A DNA stretch of 64,000 bases from Polyangiaceae bacterium (GCA_965222375.1 CBDCTZ010000016.1:3392001-3456000); one strand, 5' to 3'. Positions 38 through 9,741 are shown, numbered from the stretch's first letter. A program made the numbers and translations. The notes: generated from the letters alone by a model not told the origin.

Positions 38-829
38 ATGACCGACCCCACCTCTGCCTATCGCGACAACGTCGCCTCCAAGACCGGAGAAGAGCTCGTC
101 GTCATTAGCGACTTGCACAAAAGCTTCGAGCACATGGGTCGCACCCTGCACGTGCTCAAGGGGATCGACCTCACCATCTATTCGGGGCAGATCTTGAGCA
201 TCGTGGGGCCCTCGGGCGCCGGCAAGAGCACGCTCTTGCACTGTATCGGGACGTTGGACCTGCCGACCACGGGCAGCATCCAGCTTGGGGGTGAAGAGCT
301 CACCACCATGAGCCAGTCGCGCCTGGCGGCGGTTCGCAACAAGGACATCGGGTTCGTCTTTCAGTTTCACCACTTGCTGCCCGAGTTCACGGCGCGTGAA
401 AACGTGATGTTGCCCGGCCTGATCCAAGGGCGCTCCCGCAAAGAGATGCAGGAGCGGGCCGGCTCCCTGCTCACCGGCGTCGGGCTCGGGGACCGGGCGA
501 CCCACCGACCGGGTGAGCTTTCGGGTGGCGAGCAGCAGCGCGTTGCCGTTGCGCGAGCCTTGGCCTTGGGGCCGCGGCTGGTGCTGGCGGATGAGCCCAC
601 GGGCAATCTGGATAGCGCCACGAGTGGAGCCATTCACGAATTGTTCTTCAAGATCACCGAGGACTTTGGCACGACCATCGTCGTGGTGACTCACAACCCG
701 AGCTTTGCCGAGAGCATGCCCCGGGTCGTGCGCATGAAGGACGGCCGCGTCGAAAAGGACGACAAGGGCCACCAGAGCGACGAGCGGGCGGCCCGGGCGA
801 GTGACGCCAGCGTTGCCGAAAGCGCCTGA
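38..829 (+). CDS. lolD: Lipoprotein-releasing ABC transporter ATP-binding protein
   Basis: Walker A GPSGAGKS, LolD motif GFVFQFHHLL, LSGGEQQR signature, ADEPTGNLD. Confidence 0.88.
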   Translation: MTDPTSAYRDNVASKTGEELVVISDLHKSFEHMGRTLHVLKGIDLTIYSGQILSIVGPSGAGKSTLLHCIGTLDLPTTGSIQLGGEELTTMSQSRLAAVRNKDIGFVFQFHHLLPEFTARENVMLPGLIQGRSRKEMQERAGSLLTGVGLGDRATHRPGELSGGEQQRVAVARALALGPRLVLADEPTGNLDSATSGAIHELFFKITEDFGTTIVVVTHNPSFAESMPRVVRMKDGRVEKDDKGHQSDERAARASDASVAESA

Positions 830-867: not shown

Positions 868-906
868 ACGACTCTCGGCTAGCGTTGCTGGGCGGCCTGG
901 CGCATC

Positions 907-1413
907 ATGAGTCGCATGAACGTTCGCCTGCTGCCCTGCCCATCTTGTCTACGGCACGTACGCGCCTCTGAACAGAATTGCCCATTTTGCGCCGTGGGCG
1001 TGGAGTTTCCGGATGCAGCGCCACTCCGGGCGACCTGGGCGGAGACGCGCCTTTCCCGAAGTGCGAGGGTGGCTTTGGGCGCGGCGTTGGCTGCGACTGG
1101 TGCGTCGGGTTGTGGCGGTAGCCCTGCTCCGGTGCCCGTGTACGGCGCTCCGGCGCCCGAGCCTCCTCCTGAGGAGTCGATGCCCCTGGAGCCCGAAGAG
1201 CCAACGGATCCGGGTGATGGCGAGTTCGCCACACCGCCAGACGGAGAGCTGACTCCCGGGCCCGATGCCGGTGCGATGCGTCCGAAATACGGCGCGCCAC
1301 CAATGCCGCCGGATGAAGGCGCCAACCGCCCCAAGTATGGCGCGCCCCCGCCGCCGGACGATCCCGGCACCATGAAGCCGCTCTACGGAGTGCCTCAAGC
1401 GCCGCGCAAGTAA
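907..1413 (+). CDS. Small Zn-ribbon lipoprotein with four YG[AV]P repeats
   Basis: CPSC...CPFC, hydrophobic stretch ending in lipobox-like ASGC, Pro-rich tail with PVYGAP, PKYGAP (x2) and PLYGVP. Confidence 0.75.
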   Translation: MSRMNVRLLPCPSCLRHVRASEQNCPFCAVGVEFPDAAPLRATWAETRLSRSARVALGAALAATGASGCGGSPAPVPVYGAPAPEPPPEESMPLEPEEPTDPGDGEFATPPDGELTPGPDAGAMRPKYGAPPMPPDEGANRPKYGAPPPPDDPGTMKPLYGVPQAPRK

Positions 1414-1422
1414 CGCCTGGGC

Positions 1423-2454
1423 TCAATGCAGCGGCAAAAGGTGCACTGGGTCGCCAGCTTGCACCTTCAATCGCTCTGCGGCATCCCGGCACAACCGGAT
1501 GCGACCGTCAGCTAGCTCGTGGATCGGGGACGCCACCGCGCGGTAGTAGGGTGGCCCGTTGTGGTCCCGACCGACCAGCGCCAGATGTCCCTCGGGCGCG
1601 TCGTCGAGGAGCTGTCCGAGCTGGGTTGCCCGGGCGGCCTGAATCAAGGTGACGTCGTCAGTGTCTGCTACGAAGTGGGGCCCACCATCGAAGGGGTCCA
1701 CGCGATCTGCGTAGCGAAAGCCGATGCGGCGCAGCATCTTCTCGACGCCCTTGGTTTGGGCGCCGACCTCGCCGATGACGCTTTGGGCTTCCTGGCTGAG
1801 CACCGAGGCGTAGATCAAGCCGCTGGGAAACAGGTCTCGAATGAAAGACTTGTTCTCGCTGGATAGGCGATCCGCCTCGGCGTAGCTGATGCCGGTGAAG
1901 TGTCTGCCCAACGCCTCCCACAGGTGACTCGTTCCGTCTTCCTCGAGGGGTGGCAGTAGCTCGGCGAGGATCTCGTTCTGAAACAACTTGCGGTGCATGG
2001 CGATGAACAGGAAGCGCACATAGGAGATCTGAAGTCCCAGCTTTTCTTTGGAGGCGCGACACTCGGGGGCCACCACCAGTCCGCCAATCTCCGTCGGCCC
2101 TTGGTAGGAAAAACCGAGGCGCAGCGCCGGGTGGTGAAAGTGCTTGTCCAGCAGTCTGGAGTATTTCTCTTCGTCGATGACGTCCAGGTAGATGTAGGGC
2201 GCGTCGCGCCGGCCGAGGCGCGCGACGATCATGCTGGTGCCGACGGCACGCTCTTGCTCGTGATCCCAAATCAGGAAGACGTATTTGCGGTGGGTTACGT
2301 TGTGGATCTTACCCGAGAAGCTCCGCTCGCTGTGCTCGAGCAACGACCGGACGTAGGACGGATCGTTGGGTAAGTTGACGCTGTTCAGGTAGTGCGCGAG
2401 TCGGAGGAGCTCGTCCTCGTCCTGAAGAAGCGCGCCGCGGATCTCGAAGCGCAT
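1423..2454 (-). CDS. astA: Arginine N-succinyltransferase
   Basis: NLPND, TEIGGL, LAEL...SHLWEALGRHFTG, DPFDGGP motifs; start placed at ATG 2454. Confidence 0.85.
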   Translation of the reverse strand: MRFEIRGALLQDEDELLRLAHYLNSVNLPNDPSYVRSLLEHSERSFSGKIHNVTHRKYVFLIWDHEQERAVGTSMIVARLGRRDAPYIYLDVIDEEKYSRLLDKHFHHPALRLGFSYQGPTEIGGLVVAPECRASKEKLGLQISYVRFLFIAMHRKLFQNEILAELLPPLEEDGTSHLWEALGRHFTGISYAEADRLSSENKSFIRDLFPSGLIYASVLSQEAQSVIGEVGAQTKGVEKMLRRIGFRYADRVDPFDGGPHFVADTDDVTLIQAARATQLGQLLDDAPEGHLALVGRDHNGPPYYRAVASPIHELADGRIRLCRDAAERLKVQAGDPVHLLPLH

Positions 2455-4700: not shown

Positions 4701-5783
4701 TCAGTTCGTCGCGTTCGGCGTCAGCGTGTGCGTCGCGATGAAGTCTGCGCCGCACTGATCCGTGTCGGTGCCGTTCGGGCTTCGAGCCAGCGCCTGGCTG
4801 GACGTGGGGGTTGGCGCTAGAGACGTCGCCGTGGCCCCGGTGTCGTCTTTGAAGCCGTCGCTGTTGGGGGTGCCGTAGATCACCGTGTCGACTACGGCGT
4901 TCGTCGAATTCACGAGCCGGACCGCATCCGCGCTACCGCTGGCGTTGCCCATGTTCATGGCGGTTTGCTTCTTGTATTGGGCGAAAGCCACGTCCTTGCC
5001 GCCGATGACCACGTAGCCCAAAGCGCCGATGCTGGCGCCGTTTGGCAGCGTGAACATGGTCGAATAGGTGGAGGTCGCTCGCTCCAGGCTCCAGCCTGCG
5101 ATGGACACCGCGCAGTTGTTCGGGTTGTACAACTCGACCCACTCCTTGCCCGAGTCGCCGCTCGGCGGGTTGGGAACCAATTCGTTGATCAGAATGGGAC
5201 TCGATGGGCAGCCACCCGTGCCGCCGGTGCCGCCAGTAGCCACGCCACCCGTGCCTGCTGTGCCGCCAGTAGCCACGCCGCCGGTTCCTGCCGTGCCGCC
5301 AGTAGCCACGCCACCCGTGCCTGCTGTGCCGCCAGTAGCCACGCCGCCGGTTCCTGCCGTGCCGCCGGTTCCTGCCGTACCGCCCGTTGCCGCGCCGCCC
5401 GTACCGCCCGTTGCCGCGCCGCCCGTGCCGCCGGTTGCCGCCCCTCCGCTACCGGATGCTCCGCTGGCGCCCGACGCGCCGGCACTGCCTCCGGCACCCG
5501 ACGCACCTGCTGAGCCACCGCCGGCTCCCGCAGAGCCACCGCTGGCTCCCGCAGAGCCACCGCTGGCACCTGCTGTGCCGCCGCTGGACGTGCCGCCGCT
5601 GGACGCTCCGCCCGTGGACGCTCCGCCCGTCGCGGTCGAACCCCCCGTGGTCACGAAGCCACCGGTGCCGCTGCTGCCGCCGAAACCCGTCGTGCCTCCG
5701 CCACCGCTGGAAGAGTCGTCGTCGGAGGAACACGCGGCGGCCAGGGCCGCCATCACGAAAAGCCCAAGGGAGTAGGTGCGCAT
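4701..5783 (-). CDS. Lipoprotein with Gly/Thr-rich linker and C-terminal lamin-tail-like domain
   Basis: Lipobox LAAAC, GGT repeats, ILINELVPNP...EWVELYN...SIAGWSL. Confidence 0.8.
   Translation of the reverse strand: MRTYSLGLFVMAALAAACSSDDDSSSGGGGTTGFGGSSGTGGFVTTGGSTATGGASTGGASSGGTSSGGTAGASGGSAGASGGSAGAGGGSAGASGAGGSAGASGASGASGSGGAATGGTGGAATGGTGGAATGGTAGTGGTAGTGGVATGGTAGTGGVATGGTAGTGGVATGGTAGTGGVATGGTGGTGGCPSSPILINELVPNPPSGDSGKEWVELYNPNNCAVSIAGWSLERATSTYSTMFTLPNGASIGALGYVVIGGKDVAFAQYKKQTAMNMGNASGSADAVRLVNSTNAVVDTVIYGTPNSDGFKDDTGATATSLAPTPTSSQALARSPNGTDTDQCGADFIATHTLTPNATN
5232..5363. repeat. Coding tandem repeat, 4 x 33 bp (two identical 66-bp units)
   Basis: 5232-5297 is identical to 5298-5363; encodes (GGTAGTGGVAT)4. 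Confidence 0.9.
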
Positions 5784-5835: not shown

Positions 5836-8800
5836 TCAGCCTTCCAGCAGCCGCTGAATGCTCTCGGGTACGGAGCCGTACTGCTCCGCCAGCGCCAGCA
5901 AGGCGGCGTTGTGGGGTAGTTCGGTGAGGAACAGGCGTGCATAGGGGGTGCCCGTCAAGCCCTCCAGGCGTCGCTGCAGAGGGGTCAGCCCTCGCACGAT
6001 CGCCCGTTTGGCCTCGGCTTCATCGCCCAGTTCCATCATGGCGTCGTGCAGCGCCACGTAGACCGGGGATTCGTTCAGCAGGCTTGGTGCCCCGGCTTCC
6101 AGCAGCTCTGCGCCTTCCTTGGCCAAGTCCAGGGCGCGGGATGGATTTTCCGTGCGCCGTTCTGCCTCCGACCACATGCCCAGGGCTACTGCCAGAATGT
6201 CGCGGTTCTGCGTGGCACGATACCCCTCTGCGGCGGTGGCCAACAGGGCACGGGCTTTCTGAGACGCCGCTTTGGATCGCGTGCGCAGGTGCTCACAGCC
6301 TCGATAGAACAACAGGCCCAAGTTGGCGCGGTCCGGTGCTGCCCAATAACCAGTGGCGGCCGCGTCTGCGTCCGAGCGGGATTCCGCCAGGTGGGAGTCC
6401 AACACCTTCTCTGTGCCAAAAGTCGCAGTCCAGCCCAACAGATTCATCTGAGCATGTCGGGATGCGCCAGAACTGCCGATGGCGTCTGCCAGAGACACGC
6501 CCGTGCTCAATGCGCCCCTAGCTTCTTGGCGGGCGCCGATGGTCGTCAACGCGAACCCCAGGTTGGTCATGAGCATCGCCTCGCGCTCTTTGAGGCCTGC
6601 GTCCCGGGCGGCGGCGACGGCGTTTCTCCGGGCGTCCAGCGCTGCGATGAGTTCACCGCGGGTTTGACGCACGATGGCTAGGGTCTGCCAACCGTCCACG
6701 GCGGCCGTAGTCACGTGGTGCTCTTCCGCCAGCTCCAGGAGCCGCGCGGCTTCCGCTTCAGCGTCCGCGAAAGCGCCCGCGAAGGCCAGGCGGGCGGCCA
6801 GGACAGCGGAGCAGCGCGCTTCTTCGTCGCGCAAACCCAAGCTGGCCGCTCGGTCGCGGGCTTCCGCCAATCGCTCGCTGATGTCGTGACCGGTGCCTCG
6901 GGCGTCGTCGAACCTCGCCCGCGCGCCACGAGCGCGCACTTCGCTCGCTTCGTCGTAGACATTTTCTTCCAGCGCTGAGACCGCGGTTTCTCGATCCGCG
7001 GCGCGGGGATCGAGGCGGCTGTAAGCTTCATCGAGATAGGCCGCCCGCTGGAAGGCCGTGGCCTTGTCTTCGGAGTGGAGCAATGCCCGTTCGGCCATGC
7101 TGAGGGCGTCGGATAGGGCGTTGGCCGCCAAAGAGCGTTGCGCGGCTCGGGACCAGTGCTCCGCGGCCTCGGACGGCTGCTCGCCCAAATCGAAGTGGCC
7201 CGCGACCGTCGCCGCGTCCTCGCCCATGCTGGCAAGCCAACGCGCGGTCAGGACGTGCAGCTCTTGTCGCTCGCGTTCTCCGAGGGACTTGTAGGCGACT
7301 TCTCGAACCAAGGCGTGCTTGAAGAGCCATTCGCGAGTGCCCGGAAAGCGCGATACGTCCTGCTCGACCAAGACCTCGCTGGCAGCCAGCTCCTTCATCA
7401 ATCCTTCAGCACGAGCCAAGCCCAGTGCCTCCAGGCCCGTGTCCCAGACCGTCAGACCAAACACCGACAGCCTGCCGACCGCATCCCGGCATTCTTCGTC
7501 TAGGGCGTCCAAGCTGGCTTGAATCACAGACTCGATGGTCGGTGCGTGCAGCTTGCCGCGGCTGCTGGCCGTCACTCGGGCGAGCTCTTCAGCGAAAAGT
7601 GGCAGACCGCTGGCTTGTTCCGCAATGCGCTCCACGGCTTCGTCAGTGGCCGCATCTCCGAGCACGGAGCGAACAATGGCGCGGACGGCCTTGCGGGAAA
7701 TGGGGCGCAGCTCCAGGGAGACGTGGTCTCGACCACCGAAGCGCTCGCTCTCTTCTTGCCAAAACGCGGGCCTCACCAGGGCCATCACCATCAGCGGCCT
7801 CATGTTGGTGCGACCCAGAAGATGGTCCAACCAGCCGATGCTCTCCGGGTCGGCCCATTGCAGATCCTCGGTGACGATGATCGTCGGCTGCCCTGCAGTG
7901 ACCTGCGCAACCAAGTCCGTCATGGCTAGCCACAGCACGTCGCGAGCACCGCGCGGATCCAAGCCTTCTGGCAACACCTCGTTGGCCAGCAGCCGCGCCA
8001 GGATCTCGCGATTCTTGCTGGTGAGGTCGCTCACCGTCGAGGGGCCCAGGCGGGAGACGATGGCCTGCTCGGCTTCTTGGGAGGTCGCACCTTTGGGTAG
8101 GCTGATGATGGCGCGTAGGATGTCTGCTGCCGCACCGAGGGCGTGGCCACGGCCATACGCCTCACTGCGTTGCACGATCACGAATGGCGCCTGCTTGCCT
8201 GCGGCGAGGCGGGCGATCACCTCGCGCCGTAGTCGCGTCTTGCCGATCCCCGGCGGCCCGGTGATGGTCACCAGGACCGGGGTCGCGTCGGAGCAGGCTC
8301 GCTCGAAGGCGTTGGCGACCTGCGCGAGTTCCGCCTCTCTGCCGACGAAGGGCGCTCCGCCGACTCGGTCTGCGCGGGGACCTCGCACTTGTTCACCGAC
8401 CACAGCGGCGCCGTCGTCGCGAGTCTTGAACTCGTAGCGGCCTCGACCCAACTCGCTGGTCGTCACGTCGGCAAGAACCACCCCAGGGGACGCTTCTCGA
8501 GCCATCGCCGAAGCTCGGTCCACGACTTCGCCGACGGGATGTGCGCCGCCGGAACGATTGGTCAAGCTCATGCGCGCTCGGCCACTCGCCACCCCGACCT
8601 GCGCGCCGGCCCGCGCCAAGCGCCGACCCAAGTCCAGGGCAGCGACCGCCTCCATTCCCGTGGCCCGGGTGGCGCCGAGGTGGGCGACCAGGGCTTCCGG
8701 CCCGAGGGGGACGGCGTCGGCGCCTCGTTCCTTCAAGTGGTCCAGGGCGCGATCTCGCGCCGAGCCGTTTTCGAAACGAAGCGCGACGATGCTGGTCACG

Positions 8801-9741
8801 AGGCGCGAGGCACTCGAGCCCAGGCGGGAACTCATTACGGGTTCACTCGGGGTCAGAGCTCGTGGTGGCGCATCCGAGGCGTCCCGCAACGCTTGACGCA
8901 ACACACCGCTGACTTCCTGCATGTCGTGGGGCCGATGGTCGGGATCCGTTGCCAGCATGCGGTGGACCAGGTCGTCCAACACGGCGGGTATGTCGCGGCG
9001 CAGCTCGGAGAGCCGGGGCGCGGGGGTCGTGACCAAGCGCGCCAGGGTCGCAATCTTGGTTGGCCCAACGTGGGGTGGGCGGCCCGTGAGTAGCTCGAAG
9101 AGTGTCGCGCCCAAGGAGTAGACGTCGCAGCGCACGTCGATGGGAGCGTCCCCGCGGGCCTGCTCGGGAGCCATGTAGGCGGGGGTGCCAACGACGTCCC
9201 CGCTACGGCTGATCTTGACGTCAGACTTCGCAGCGACGCCGAAATCCACGAGCTTGGGTGCCACCGTCGTCGCCGGAACGTTGGCGCCATCTTCCTCGCA
9301 CAAGAAGATGTTGCCCGGTTTGATGTCACGGTGGACGACGCCCAGGTCGTGGGCTGCCTCCAAGGCCTCGGAGACCCGCGTGGCCAGTTCCACGGACTGG
9401 CGGAGGGTCAGGGGAGCGTGCTTCTGGCGCATGCTGACGTCCTCGCCGTCCAGCCACTCCATGGCGACGTAGGGCTGGCCGGTTTCGTCCAGAACGCCGG
9501 ATGCCACCATGCGCACGATGCCCGGATGTTTGAGTTCTCCCAGAAGCTCGGCTTCGCGACGCAGACGCTCTTCCTCTTCAGGGACGTCTCCGGCCTCCGC
9601 TTGCAGGACTTTGAGGGCAACCGGGCCTTGGCTGACCTGGTCATAGGCTCGATACACGACGCCCGCCCCGCCGCGGCCCACCTCTCGCTCGACGACGAAT
9701 CTACCGCCCATGCGGCGGCCAGGTTGGAAGCTCGAACTCAC
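5836..9741 (-). CDS. Ser/Thr kinase - degenerate cyclase-like - STAND/AAA ATPase - TPR-like protein
   Basis: GRGGAG, VALK, HRDIKPGN, DFG, APE; FVGREAEL, GPPGIGKT, EDLQWAD; helical repeat C-terminus. Confidence 0.88.
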   Translation of the reverse strand: MSSSFQPGRRMGGRFVVEREVGRGGAGVVYRAYDQVSQGPVALKVLQAEAGDVPEEEERLRREAELLGELKHPGIVRMVASGVLDETGQPYVAMEWLDGEDVSMRQKHAPLTLRQSVELATRVSEALEAAHDLGVVHRDIKPGNIFLCEEDGANVPATTVAPKLVDFGVAAKSDVKISRSGDVVGTPAYMAPEQARGDAPIDVRCDVYSLGATLFELLTGRPPHVGPTKIATLARLVTTPAPRLSELRRDIPAVLDDLVHRMLATDPDHRPHDMQEVSGVLRQALRDASDAPPRALTPSEPVMSSRLGSSASRLVTSIVALRFENGSARDRALDHLKERGADAVPLGPEALVAHLGATRATGMEAVAALDLGRRLARAGAQVGVASGRARMSLTNRSGGAHPVGEVVDRASAMAREASPGVVLADVTTSELGRGRYEFKTRDDGAAVVGEQVRGPRADRVGGAPFVGREAELAQVANAFERACSDATPVLVTITGPPGIGKTRLRREVIARLAAGKQAPFVIVQRSEAYGRGHALGAAADILRAIISLPKGATSQEAEQAIVSRLGPSTVSDLTSKNREILARLLANEVLPEGLDPRGARDVLWLAMTDLVAQVTAGQPTIIVTEDLQWADPESIGWLDHLLGRTNMRPLMVMALVRPAFWQEESERFGGRDHVSLELRPISRKAVRAIVRSVLGDAATDEAVERIAEQASGLPLFAEELARVTASSRGKLHAPTIESVIQASLDALDEECRDAVGRLSVFGLTVWDTGLEALGLARAEGLMKELAASEVLVEQDVSRFPGTREWLFKHALVREVAYKSLGERERQELHVLTARWLASMGEDAATVAGHFDLGEQPSEAAEHWSRAAQRSLAANALSDALSMAERALLHSEDKATAFQRAAYLDEAYSRLDPRAADRETAVSALEENVYDEASEVRARGARARFDDARGTGHDISERLAEARDRAASLGLRDEEARCSAVLAARLAFAGAFADAEAEAARLLELAEEHHVTTAAVDGWQTLAIVRQTRGELIAALDARRNAVAAARDAGLKEREAMLMTNLGFALTTIGARQEARGALSTGVSLADAIGSSGASRHAQMNLLGWTATFGTEKVLDSHLAESRSDADAAATGYWAAPDRANLGLLFYRGCEHLRTRSKAASQKARALLATAAEGYRATQNRDILAVALGMWSEAERRTENPSRALDLAKEGAELLEAGAPSLLNESPVYVALHDAMMELGDEAEAKRAIVRGLTPLQRRLEGLTGTPYARLFLTELPHNAALLALAEQYGSVPESIQRLLEG

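Follow-up and report, generated by a model that had tools for sequence, protein, structure and literature searches.

The stretch of DNA analyzed here (the window) comprises 64,000 nucleotides of a Polyangiaceae bacterium (GCA_965222375.1 CBDCTZ010000016.1:3392001-3456000) and corresponds to C16:3392001-3456000 in a genome of 10.56 Mb with 16 contigs and 63.6% G+C; positions given without a contig (C) number are those of the window. The subject of this report is an open reading frame (ORF) of 168 codons plus stop at 907..1413 on the plus strand, which encodes a predicted zinc ribbon, a lipoprotein-type signal and a disordered Pro/acidic tail with four X-Tyr-Gly sites, and which is probably a substrate of radical S-adenosylmethionine (SAM) enzymes related to the tyramine spliceases. 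Translation may begin at the ATG at 916 and not at 907, as the homologs P0001 and P0002 open with MNVRL. In the translation, Cys is found at positions 11 and 14 (CPSC), at 25 and 28 (CPFC), and at 69, right behind a hydrophobic stretch (...ATGASG-C-GG). The only Tyr residues, four in total, are at positions 79, 128, 144 and 160 (nucleotides 1141, 1288, 1336 and 1384), and each is followed by Gly-[Ala/Val]-Pro. Their contexts are, in order, PVPVYGAPAP, MRPKYGAPPM, NRPKYGAPPP and MKPLYGVPQA, with a spacing of exactly 16 residues between the last three. An earlier note on this DNA, made from the sequence alone, had described the gene in these terms, and all the coordinates that it gave proved correct on retranslation. 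A scan of 600-1700 for promoters and terminators returned 0 sites of either type. Three long antisense ORFs (149-195 residues) at 879-1492(-) overlap the gene.

The protein belongs to a large family. A word-indexed search returned 28 relatives of 108-208 residues, of which the named ones are from Polyangiales or Polyangiaceae metagenome bins. In the alignment of these 28 homologs with the query (29 rows), L8, C11, C14, R16, H17, C25, P26, F27, C28, C69, Y144, G145 and P147 are invariant, and the sequence between the invariant blocks is variable and of low complexity. With HMMER, 4560 clusters among 1.84 billion representatives were matched at E<=0.001 and 2176 at E<=1e-10; among the 150 clusters listed, all are short, and most matches start at or near the N terminus. 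The nearest clusters in the ESM Atlas are all named 'hypothetical' (30/30), and those shown are from Myxococcota. Pfam and NCBIfam contain no model for the protein and gave no leader-family match. Longer proteins that include residues 1-75 were sought as well; no match reached E<=0.001, though this is weak evidence. A profile search of the six-frame ORFs of the same genome identified nine members, the window copy and eight paralogs with the CxxC...CPFC...YGxP arrangement. Two of the paralogs (C16:2109714-2110274 and C16:1021468-1021962) have Gly/Ser-rich tails that close with a single Tyr-Gly and, behind it, two Cys (PYGCVWPGECGPI[HF]A). In the Gly-rich paralogs, antisense frames exceed the true frame in G+C content at third codon positions, which misleads simple gene callers, and profile matches were used instead.

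The head of the protein, residues 8-30 with Cys11, Cys14, Cys25 and Cys28 (928..996, plus strand), is a predicted zinc ribbon and is proposed to be the element that the enzyme recognizes (the 'leader'), an assignment drawn from the invariant columns, the AlphaFold2 model and the contacts in the complex model described below. Two CxxC knuckles on β-hairpins are expected of such a domain; the four Cys are invariant, and two short strands (residues 8-10 and 17-19) are predicted. In this model the predicted local distance difference test score (pLDDT) is ~95 at residues 11-30, a helix spans residues 51-65, and the remainder is disordered. A Foldseek search of the PDB found nothing at E<=0.001, the only matches being non-significant zinc-finger look-alikes (best E 0.8).

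The tail carries the four candidate splice sites, as read from the translation: Val78-Tyr79-Gly80 (1138..1146), Lys127-Tyr128-Gly129 (1285..1293), Lys143-Tyr144-Gly145 (1333..1341) and Leu159-Tyr160-Gly161 (1381..1389), all on the plus strand. It is the third whose Tyr, Gly and +3 Pro are invariant in the alignment. In ORFs of at least 400 residues from the same genome, Gly follows Tyr at a background of 8.5%, and the occurrence of Gly after all four Tyr residues has a chance probability of ~5e-5. The two RPKYGAPP units differ synonymously in 6 of 8 codons, and Tandem Repeats Finder detected 0 DNA repeats; therefore the peptide is conserved rather than the product of a recent DNA duplication, which indicates selection on the peptide. 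Among 93 distinct family members, from loci fetched with a profile that itself includes the YG motif, the Tyr residues behind the lipobox Cys are Tyr-Gly in 235 of 241 cases, and 205 of these 235 sites have the YGxP form; at least one site is present in 91 of the 93 members and the maximum is six. A control profile that ends at the lipobox Cys recovered 8 members from the whole of the present genome, and in these every tail Tyr is Tyr-Gly (16/16). The earlier note had made its proposal depend on conservation of YG among homologs, and this conservation is apparent both in the alignment and in the control. The residue before the Tyr varies among the 93 members (Leu 75, Ala 49, Arg 22, Val 18, Pro 17, Met 16, Glu 13, Asp 12, Lys 7, Ile 4). 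According to passages of PMC11414181 and PMC9811515, it is this residue that becomes the β-amino acid in splicing, and because of this conversion splicing calls for an invariant Tyr-Gly after a residue that varies. An engineered PlpA2 splice tag, GGPIRPLYGLPI (an entry in Table 1 of PMC10533398), has an RP-x-YG-x-P shape in common with MRPKYGAPP, and MKPLYGVP is likened to it also.

An internal lipoprotein-type signal (1048..1113, plus strand) separates the ribbon from the tail. It consists of a positive n-region, RLSRSAR (residues 48-54), a short h-region, VALGAALAATGASG (residues 55-68), and the lipobox Cys69 (nucleotides 1111-1113) in the context ASG-C, and the helix predicted at residues 51-65 lies within it. 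The same features recur throughout the family: in all 93 members there is an uncharged stretch of 10-18 residues (median 14) before a Cys, the eight residues ahead of this stretch have a net charge of +1 to +4, and its end has the form small-small-Cys. Behind the Cys stands Gly in 50 members, Ser in 23, Ala in 11 and Lys in none, and the Cys itself is at position 52-83 (median 62). This pattern of an uncharged run and Cys is that of a lipoprotein signal and is short for a membrane helix; lipidation is predicted and is probable. The genome has two copies of lspA (signal peptidase II) that score over the cut-off. In genome G138, one member (C3:960003-960344; L076:1168-1902(-)) has a zinc ribbon, a lipobox and one Tyr-Gly followed by an OmpA-family peptidoglycan-binding domain (PF00691, 48 bits), and the location of this domain behind the YG places the tail of that member in the periplasm. 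If signal peptidase II cut at Cys69, the ribbon would be stripped off, which would explain why the enzymes described below are accompanied by neither a leader protease nor an exporter.

Three radical SAM/SPASM enzymes of the genome are related to the NCBIfam family TIGR04103 ('nif11-class peptide radical SAM maturase 3'), the PlpX splicease family, which we take to correspond to IPR026482. Portions of PMC11002830 and PMC11414181 assign PlpX, the founding tyramine splicease, to the radical SAM/SPASM subclass IPR026482, which acts at Xaa-Tyr-Gly. The enzymes match TIGR04103 with E values of 1e-154 to 1e-130 and are encoded at C15:1020014-1021303 (430 codons; TIGR04103 515 bits, TIGR03913 481 bits), C16:2108413-2109705 (431 codons; 450 and 458 bits, TIGR03913 being the better match) and C14:1177577-1178788 (404 codons; 435 and 389 bits). 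All three genes are intact, match Radical_SAM (PF04055) and SPASM (PF13186) above the cut-offs, and contain the CxxxCxxC motif (CDLTCRHC). The genome thus does not lack splicease-like enzymes, and the statement of the earlier note that no such gene lies in the window also holds, as all 22 TIGR04103 matches at E<=0.001 fall outside C16:3392001-3456000. The 16 flanking ORFs of the three cassettes include no Y protein of the type with a RiPP recognition element (RRE; RiPP, a peptide that is ribosomally synthesized and then post-translationally modified), no peptidase-exporter and no other shared gene. A Y protein is likewise lacking in binary splicease systems, as described in part of PMC11414181. 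As a separate observation, C-terminal positions 423-457 of the TIGR03913 model resemble the zinc ribbon of the family (window residues 3-37 match with E 0.043), and in G016:C4:120923-122260 the TIGR03913 match continues through the stop codon of the enzyme into the next zinc-ribbon gene, up to position 456; some TIGR03913 seed enzymes may carry a ribbon fused to their own C terminus.

The family is tightly coupled to the enzyme in genomes. Behind the C15 enzyme there are four paralogs in tandem, the first starting 6 bases past the enzyme stop; the C16 enzyme is directly followed by a single paralog, and a paralog convergent with the C14 gene lies 257 bases from it. Six of the nine members in this genome therefore adjoin an enzyme; the other three (the window copy, C5:544330 and C16:1021468) are orphans. 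The member convergent with the C14 enzyme, the most divergent of the three, is at C14:1179045-1179491(-) and has Arg-Tyr (CTRYIK) where the others have Arg-His in the ribbon, which may be a matched enzyme-handle variant. A DDE transposase gene (C15:1023792-1025375) directly follows the cassette of the C15 enzyme and its four candidate substrates. A survey of 151 genomes of the order, with an enzyme threshold of E<=1e-60 (92 positive), found family and enzyme together in 85 (one of these, G123, being unpublished), the family alone in 0, the enzyme alone in 7 and neither in 59. In five contiguous genomes for which every match was listed, all strong enzymes (10/10 at E<=1e-130) have a member within ~500 bases, and 14 of the 54 members adjoin an enzyme (G138 2/5, G098 4/5, G045 3/4, G121 2/15 and G049 3/25). 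With the present genome added, all 13 enzymes in six genomes have a neighboring member, 20 of the 63 members are adjacent to an enzyme, and 43 are orphans. In a different family of the phylum (L078), members flank the enzyme on both sides, and relatives of the enzyme are found in 53 of 201 phylum genomes. Both expectations of the earlier note, that paralogs with CPxC...YGxP exist in the genome and that homologs elsewhere sit next to such enzymes, agree with these results.

Docking of the window orphan on an enzyme was examined by complex prediction with the C15 enzyme (36-row alignment) and the window protein (29-row alignment) in three runs, with three controls. The interface score ipSAE was 0.85, 0.88 and 0.88 as compared with 0.00 in all three controls; the mark used is reached by 116 of 157 solved complexes and by 2 of 215 mismatched pairs, a calibration that is only roughly valid for the custom alignments used here. 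The partner has a pLDDT of 42, and at least 13% of contacts are common to the runs. Confident contacts of the ribbon involve V6, L8, P10, C14, L15, R16, H17 and P26, of which L8, R16, H17 and P26 are invariant in the family. On the enzyme side they involve residues 277-282 (FGPYES), 290, 292, 361-362 (YY), 364-365 and 389; among 36 enzymes there is no variation at F277, G278, P279, Y361, Y362 or H389 and almost none at Y280, E281 and H292. The model supports binding of the orphan's zinc ribbon to the splicease-like enzyme. In known binary spliceases, the leader helix of the precursor occupies an activating site on the enzyme, according to a part of PMC11414181, and a β-hairpin zinc ribbon would take the role of the leader here.

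The orphans of this genome differ in their relationships. The ribbon of the orphan C16:1021468 is 79% identical to that of the copy next to the C16 enzyme, the two proteins share the PYGCVWPGECGPI ending, and this clear pairing with an enzyme-adjacent copy makes it a direct case for trans-acting service. The nearest paralog of the window copy is the C5 orphan, with 75% ribbon identity and the same Pro/acidic tail. The gatB gene adjoins both the C5 orphan and a same-genus orphan; thus orphans can keep stable places among housekeeping genes. All invariant zinc-ribbon residues and the YG sites are kept in the orphans. The window gene is the end of a row composed of lysS, a lolCE-like permease gene and a lolD-like ABC ATPase gene, and is convergent with an arginine N-succinyltransferase-like gene. 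The lolD-like gene is at 38..829 on the plus strand (TIGR02211 273 bits, cut-off 308), and the lolCE-like gene (TIGR02212 319 bits, cut-off 362) and lysS are upstream of it, beyond the window. The earlier note had left it undecided whether the position behind lolC/E-lolD is meaningful. The adjacency is real, and its conservation in relatives was not seen: in nine relatives, 15 loci that hold family members gave 0 LolD matches, and 0 of the 5 best LolD orthologs of five genomes has a family member alongside. The Lol neighborhood suits a lipoprotein but is unconserved and probably not required. Farther along the window are two ORFs described from translation only. The first, at 4701-5783(-), has 360 residues, with a lipobox-like signal at the N terminus, repeats rich in Gly/Thr/Ala over ~180 residues and a globular part at the C terminus; the second, at 5836-9741(-), has 1301 residues, with a start that resembles a Ser/Thr protein kinase and, after it, a long region of helical repeats.

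We regard it as fairly probable that the gene encodes an 'orphan' precursor in a myxobacterial variant of the spliceotide systems, and that this precursor is spliced in trans, exported and lipidated. The proposed sequence of events has four steps. (i) The N-terminal zinc ribbon would dock in the cytoplasm on one of the three PlpX-like enzymes, as the complex model suggests; the enzyme genes lie on other contigs or, on the contig of the window gene, at least 1.3 Mb from it. (ii) A tyramine unit would be excised at up to four sites (one Val-Tyr-Gly, two Lys-Tyr-Gly and one Leu-Tyr-Gly), as homology and the invariant X-Tyr-Gly suggest, leaving an α-keto-β-amino amide at each. (iii) The internal signal would direct the tail through Sec, Cys69 would be lipidated, and signal peptidase II would cut before Cys69, so that the zinc-ribbon 'leader' is removed with no dedicated protease or exporter; this step is predicted from the sequence features. 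(iv) The mature product might then be a lipid-anchored, disordered chain of ~100 residues that bears electrophilic keto-amides, and its most plausible role, which is speculative, would be that of a tethered inhibitor of envelope serine or cysteine proteases. A multi-core precursor modified in trans is what the earlier note had proposed, and each computational check that was run supports it. On evidence that is computational throughout, the gene, its family, their close genomic association with the enzyme and the conserved motif are established, and the chemistry, the trans action and a protease-inhibitor product are what we infer.

Several points weigh against this reading. In the literature, no mass spectrometry was found for any family member. 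The genomes of the co-occurrence survey are related and are not independent samples, and no statistic is given for the co-occurrence. The loci of the 93 members are biased by the profile through which they were fetched, a bias that does not affect the control in the present genome. Confident contacts in the complex model are limited to the zinc ribbon, and no Tyr-Gly is placed in the active site. The remaining points concern the enzymes, the orphan status of the window copy and the signal, and are considered below with the alternatives on which they bear.

All three enzymes fall under the TIGR04103 cut-off of 725 bits (best 515), the TIGR03913 family ('GDL motif peptide-associated maturase') scores nearly as high (481, 458 and 389 bits; cut-off 592), and a literature search found no study of TIGR03913 chemistry. 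From their scores under both cut-offs and the nearly equal match to TIGR03913, the enzymes form their own clade beside the known spliceases. It is unlikely that they act on the Tyr-Gly of the family with some other chemistry, such as a cross-link, formation of a C-C or C-O bond to Tyr or another Tyr-directed radical reaction. This alternative gains from the location of the enzymes between two families, about as near to TIGR03913 as to the splicease family, and from the many reactions that related SPASM enzymes catalyze; among solved structures there is no splicease, and the closest are SkfB, PqqE and 5wgg. Against it, the sites have the signature of splice sites, with an invariant Tyr-Gly, a free preceding residue and usually Pro at +3, the PlpA2 core PLYGLP is of the same shape, and TIGR04103 is the best family for two of the three enzymes (E 1e-154 and 1e-130).

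The window copy has no TIGR04103-type enzyme within the 64-kb window, and between its ribbon and those of the enzyme-adjacent copies identity is only 50-62%. An orphan of this kind could be left unmodified, as a proline-rich envelope lipoprotein in which YGAPP is a structural or partner-binding motif, with only the enzyme-adjacent paralogs as substrates. The lack of an enzyme gene within 64 kb, the Pro/acidic tails of the window and C5 copies as compared with the Gly/Ser-rich tails of the enzyme-adjacent copies, and the location of both copies among housekeeping genes (lysS-lolCE-lolD in the window; gatB at C5 and in the same-genus genome) would all be in keeping with such a role. However, retention of the ribbon residues and YG by orphans is hard to explain if they never meet an enzyme. 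Although 43 of the 63 members in six genomes are orphans, all 85 genomes with the family have the enzyme, and the complex model passes with the window orphan itself. We consider an unmodified orphan distinctly unlikely.

The signal is not at the extreme N terminus, being preceded by 47 residues that include the zinc ribbon, and position -3 of the lipobox is Ala, not Leu, Val or Ile. The unusual location, together with the helix predicted at residues 51-65 and the leader helix that known two-component spliceases bind (part of PMC11414181), could mean that the hydrophobic stretch serves as an anchor in the membrane or as a leader helix that binds the enzyme and that the Cys is otherwise used, with a ribbon that stays in the cytoplasm or a type II membrane protein as the outcome. 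However, a run of 10-18 residues (median 14) is short for a transmembrane helix, the positive n-region and small-small-Cys are found in 93 of 93 members, an OmpA-family domain follows the run in one member, and the enzymes have no exporter or leader protease beside them, which together make this arrangement very unlikely. Other candidates were rejected: an anti-sigma factor, as there is no HxxxCxxC and no adjacent sigma gene; a sactipeptide-type Cys cross-link, as there is a single Cys and it is in a lipobox context; and a GltJ-like zinc-ribbon motility protein, as there is no Pfam or NCBIfam domain match.

If the window gene is indeed an orphan splicease substrate, a broader and more tentative proposal is that Myxococcota have a genome-wide post-translational system in which two or three splicease-type enzymes read a zinc-ribbon handle and install keto-amides in up to ~25 dispersed envelope lipoproteins per genome, with Sec, Lgt, signal peptidase II and Lol serving as exporter and leader peptidase; we hold this to be possible, with the balance of our judgment somewhat against it. 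Until now, tyramine splicing has been known from pathways to RiPP-type peptides, and the same chemistry would here be applied to dozens of ordinary-looking, dispersed lipoprotein genes. Backbone splicing would then be a housekeeping protein modification and not a route to a secreted natural product. The zinc ribbon would be a portable recognition handle, with the leader removed by the cell's own signal peptidase II, and the ribbon and X-Tyr-Gly would together constitute a compact two-part tag for introducing reactive keto-amides into exported proteins. A lipid-tethered 'keto-amide lipoproteome' would follow, which might, for example, shield the surface of protease-secreting predators against proteases, and it would point to lipid-anchored protease inhibitors of predatory soil bacteria as a class that has gone unrecognized. 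Genome mining by enzyme neighborhood alone would miss most of the substrates (43/63 being orphans), in a family of 4560 representative clusters that has no name and no Pfam or NCBIfam model.

Spliceotide systems have been surveyed widely. As cited in passages of reviews, a 2022 survey predicted splicease systems in 189 genera, with 27 confirmed pairs (PMC10849128), and counted 939 predicted systems (PMC10533398). Our literature search found no zinc-ribbon or lipoprotein-type spliceotide precursors and no orphan substrate sets in myxobacteria, although the 2022 survey may include the type. Among named enzyme families, TIGR03913 is the GDL-motif maturase, with a near-equal hidden Markov model score, and a close homolog (P0037, 76% identical) bears its name in NCBI. 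However, none of the 201 phylum genomes reaches the TIGR03913 cut-off, and the neighbors here are zinc-ribbon YG genes; those in Chromobacterium are DUF1842/DUF1843 proteins, according to a passage of PMC12114271. TIGR04133, another radical SAM/SPASM family, is the third-best match for two of the three enzymes and is distant (173 and 153 bits; cut-off 425). It is paired with a 'radical SAM-associated putative lipoprotein' and would be a precedent for a SPASM enzyme that acts with a lipoprotein.

The closest comparison is with two types of known splicease system. The type I systems of Pleurocapsa (PlpX/PlpY/PlpA and PcpXYA), as described in parts of PMC11414181, PMC10533398, PMC11002830 and PMC10849128, resemble the present one in having a radical SAM/SPASM enzyme of the same sequence neighborhood (TIGR04103 E 1e-154), at least one X-Tyr-Gly per precursor and several precursors per enzyme. 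They differ in that the family described here lacks a leader of the Nif11 or nitrile-hydratase type and has instead a four-Cys zinc ribbon and a lipoprotein-type signal. In addition, no Y protein or RRE is found beside the present enzymes, which are under the family cut-off, most substrates are dispersed, and there is no dedicated protease or exporter. The binary (type II) systems of Rheinheimera (RhaX/RhaA, RcsX/RcsA and RasX/RasA), as described in parts of PMC11414181 and PMC11626197, are similar in that they have no Y protein and recognize the precursor via its N terminus, and the paralogs in the present genome that end in YG and two Cys (PYGCVWPGEC) recall the disulfide-bearing Rheinheimera cores. 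However, the Rheinheimera leader is an α-helix, whereas the modeled contact here is made by a zinc-ribbon β-hairpin, and the Rheinheimera products are small secreted peptides, whereas the tails here have 70-120 residues, are disordered and are probably lipid-anchored. Spliceotides and spliceases are known; what the window adds is the orphan case and a set of substrates that are mostly dispersed.

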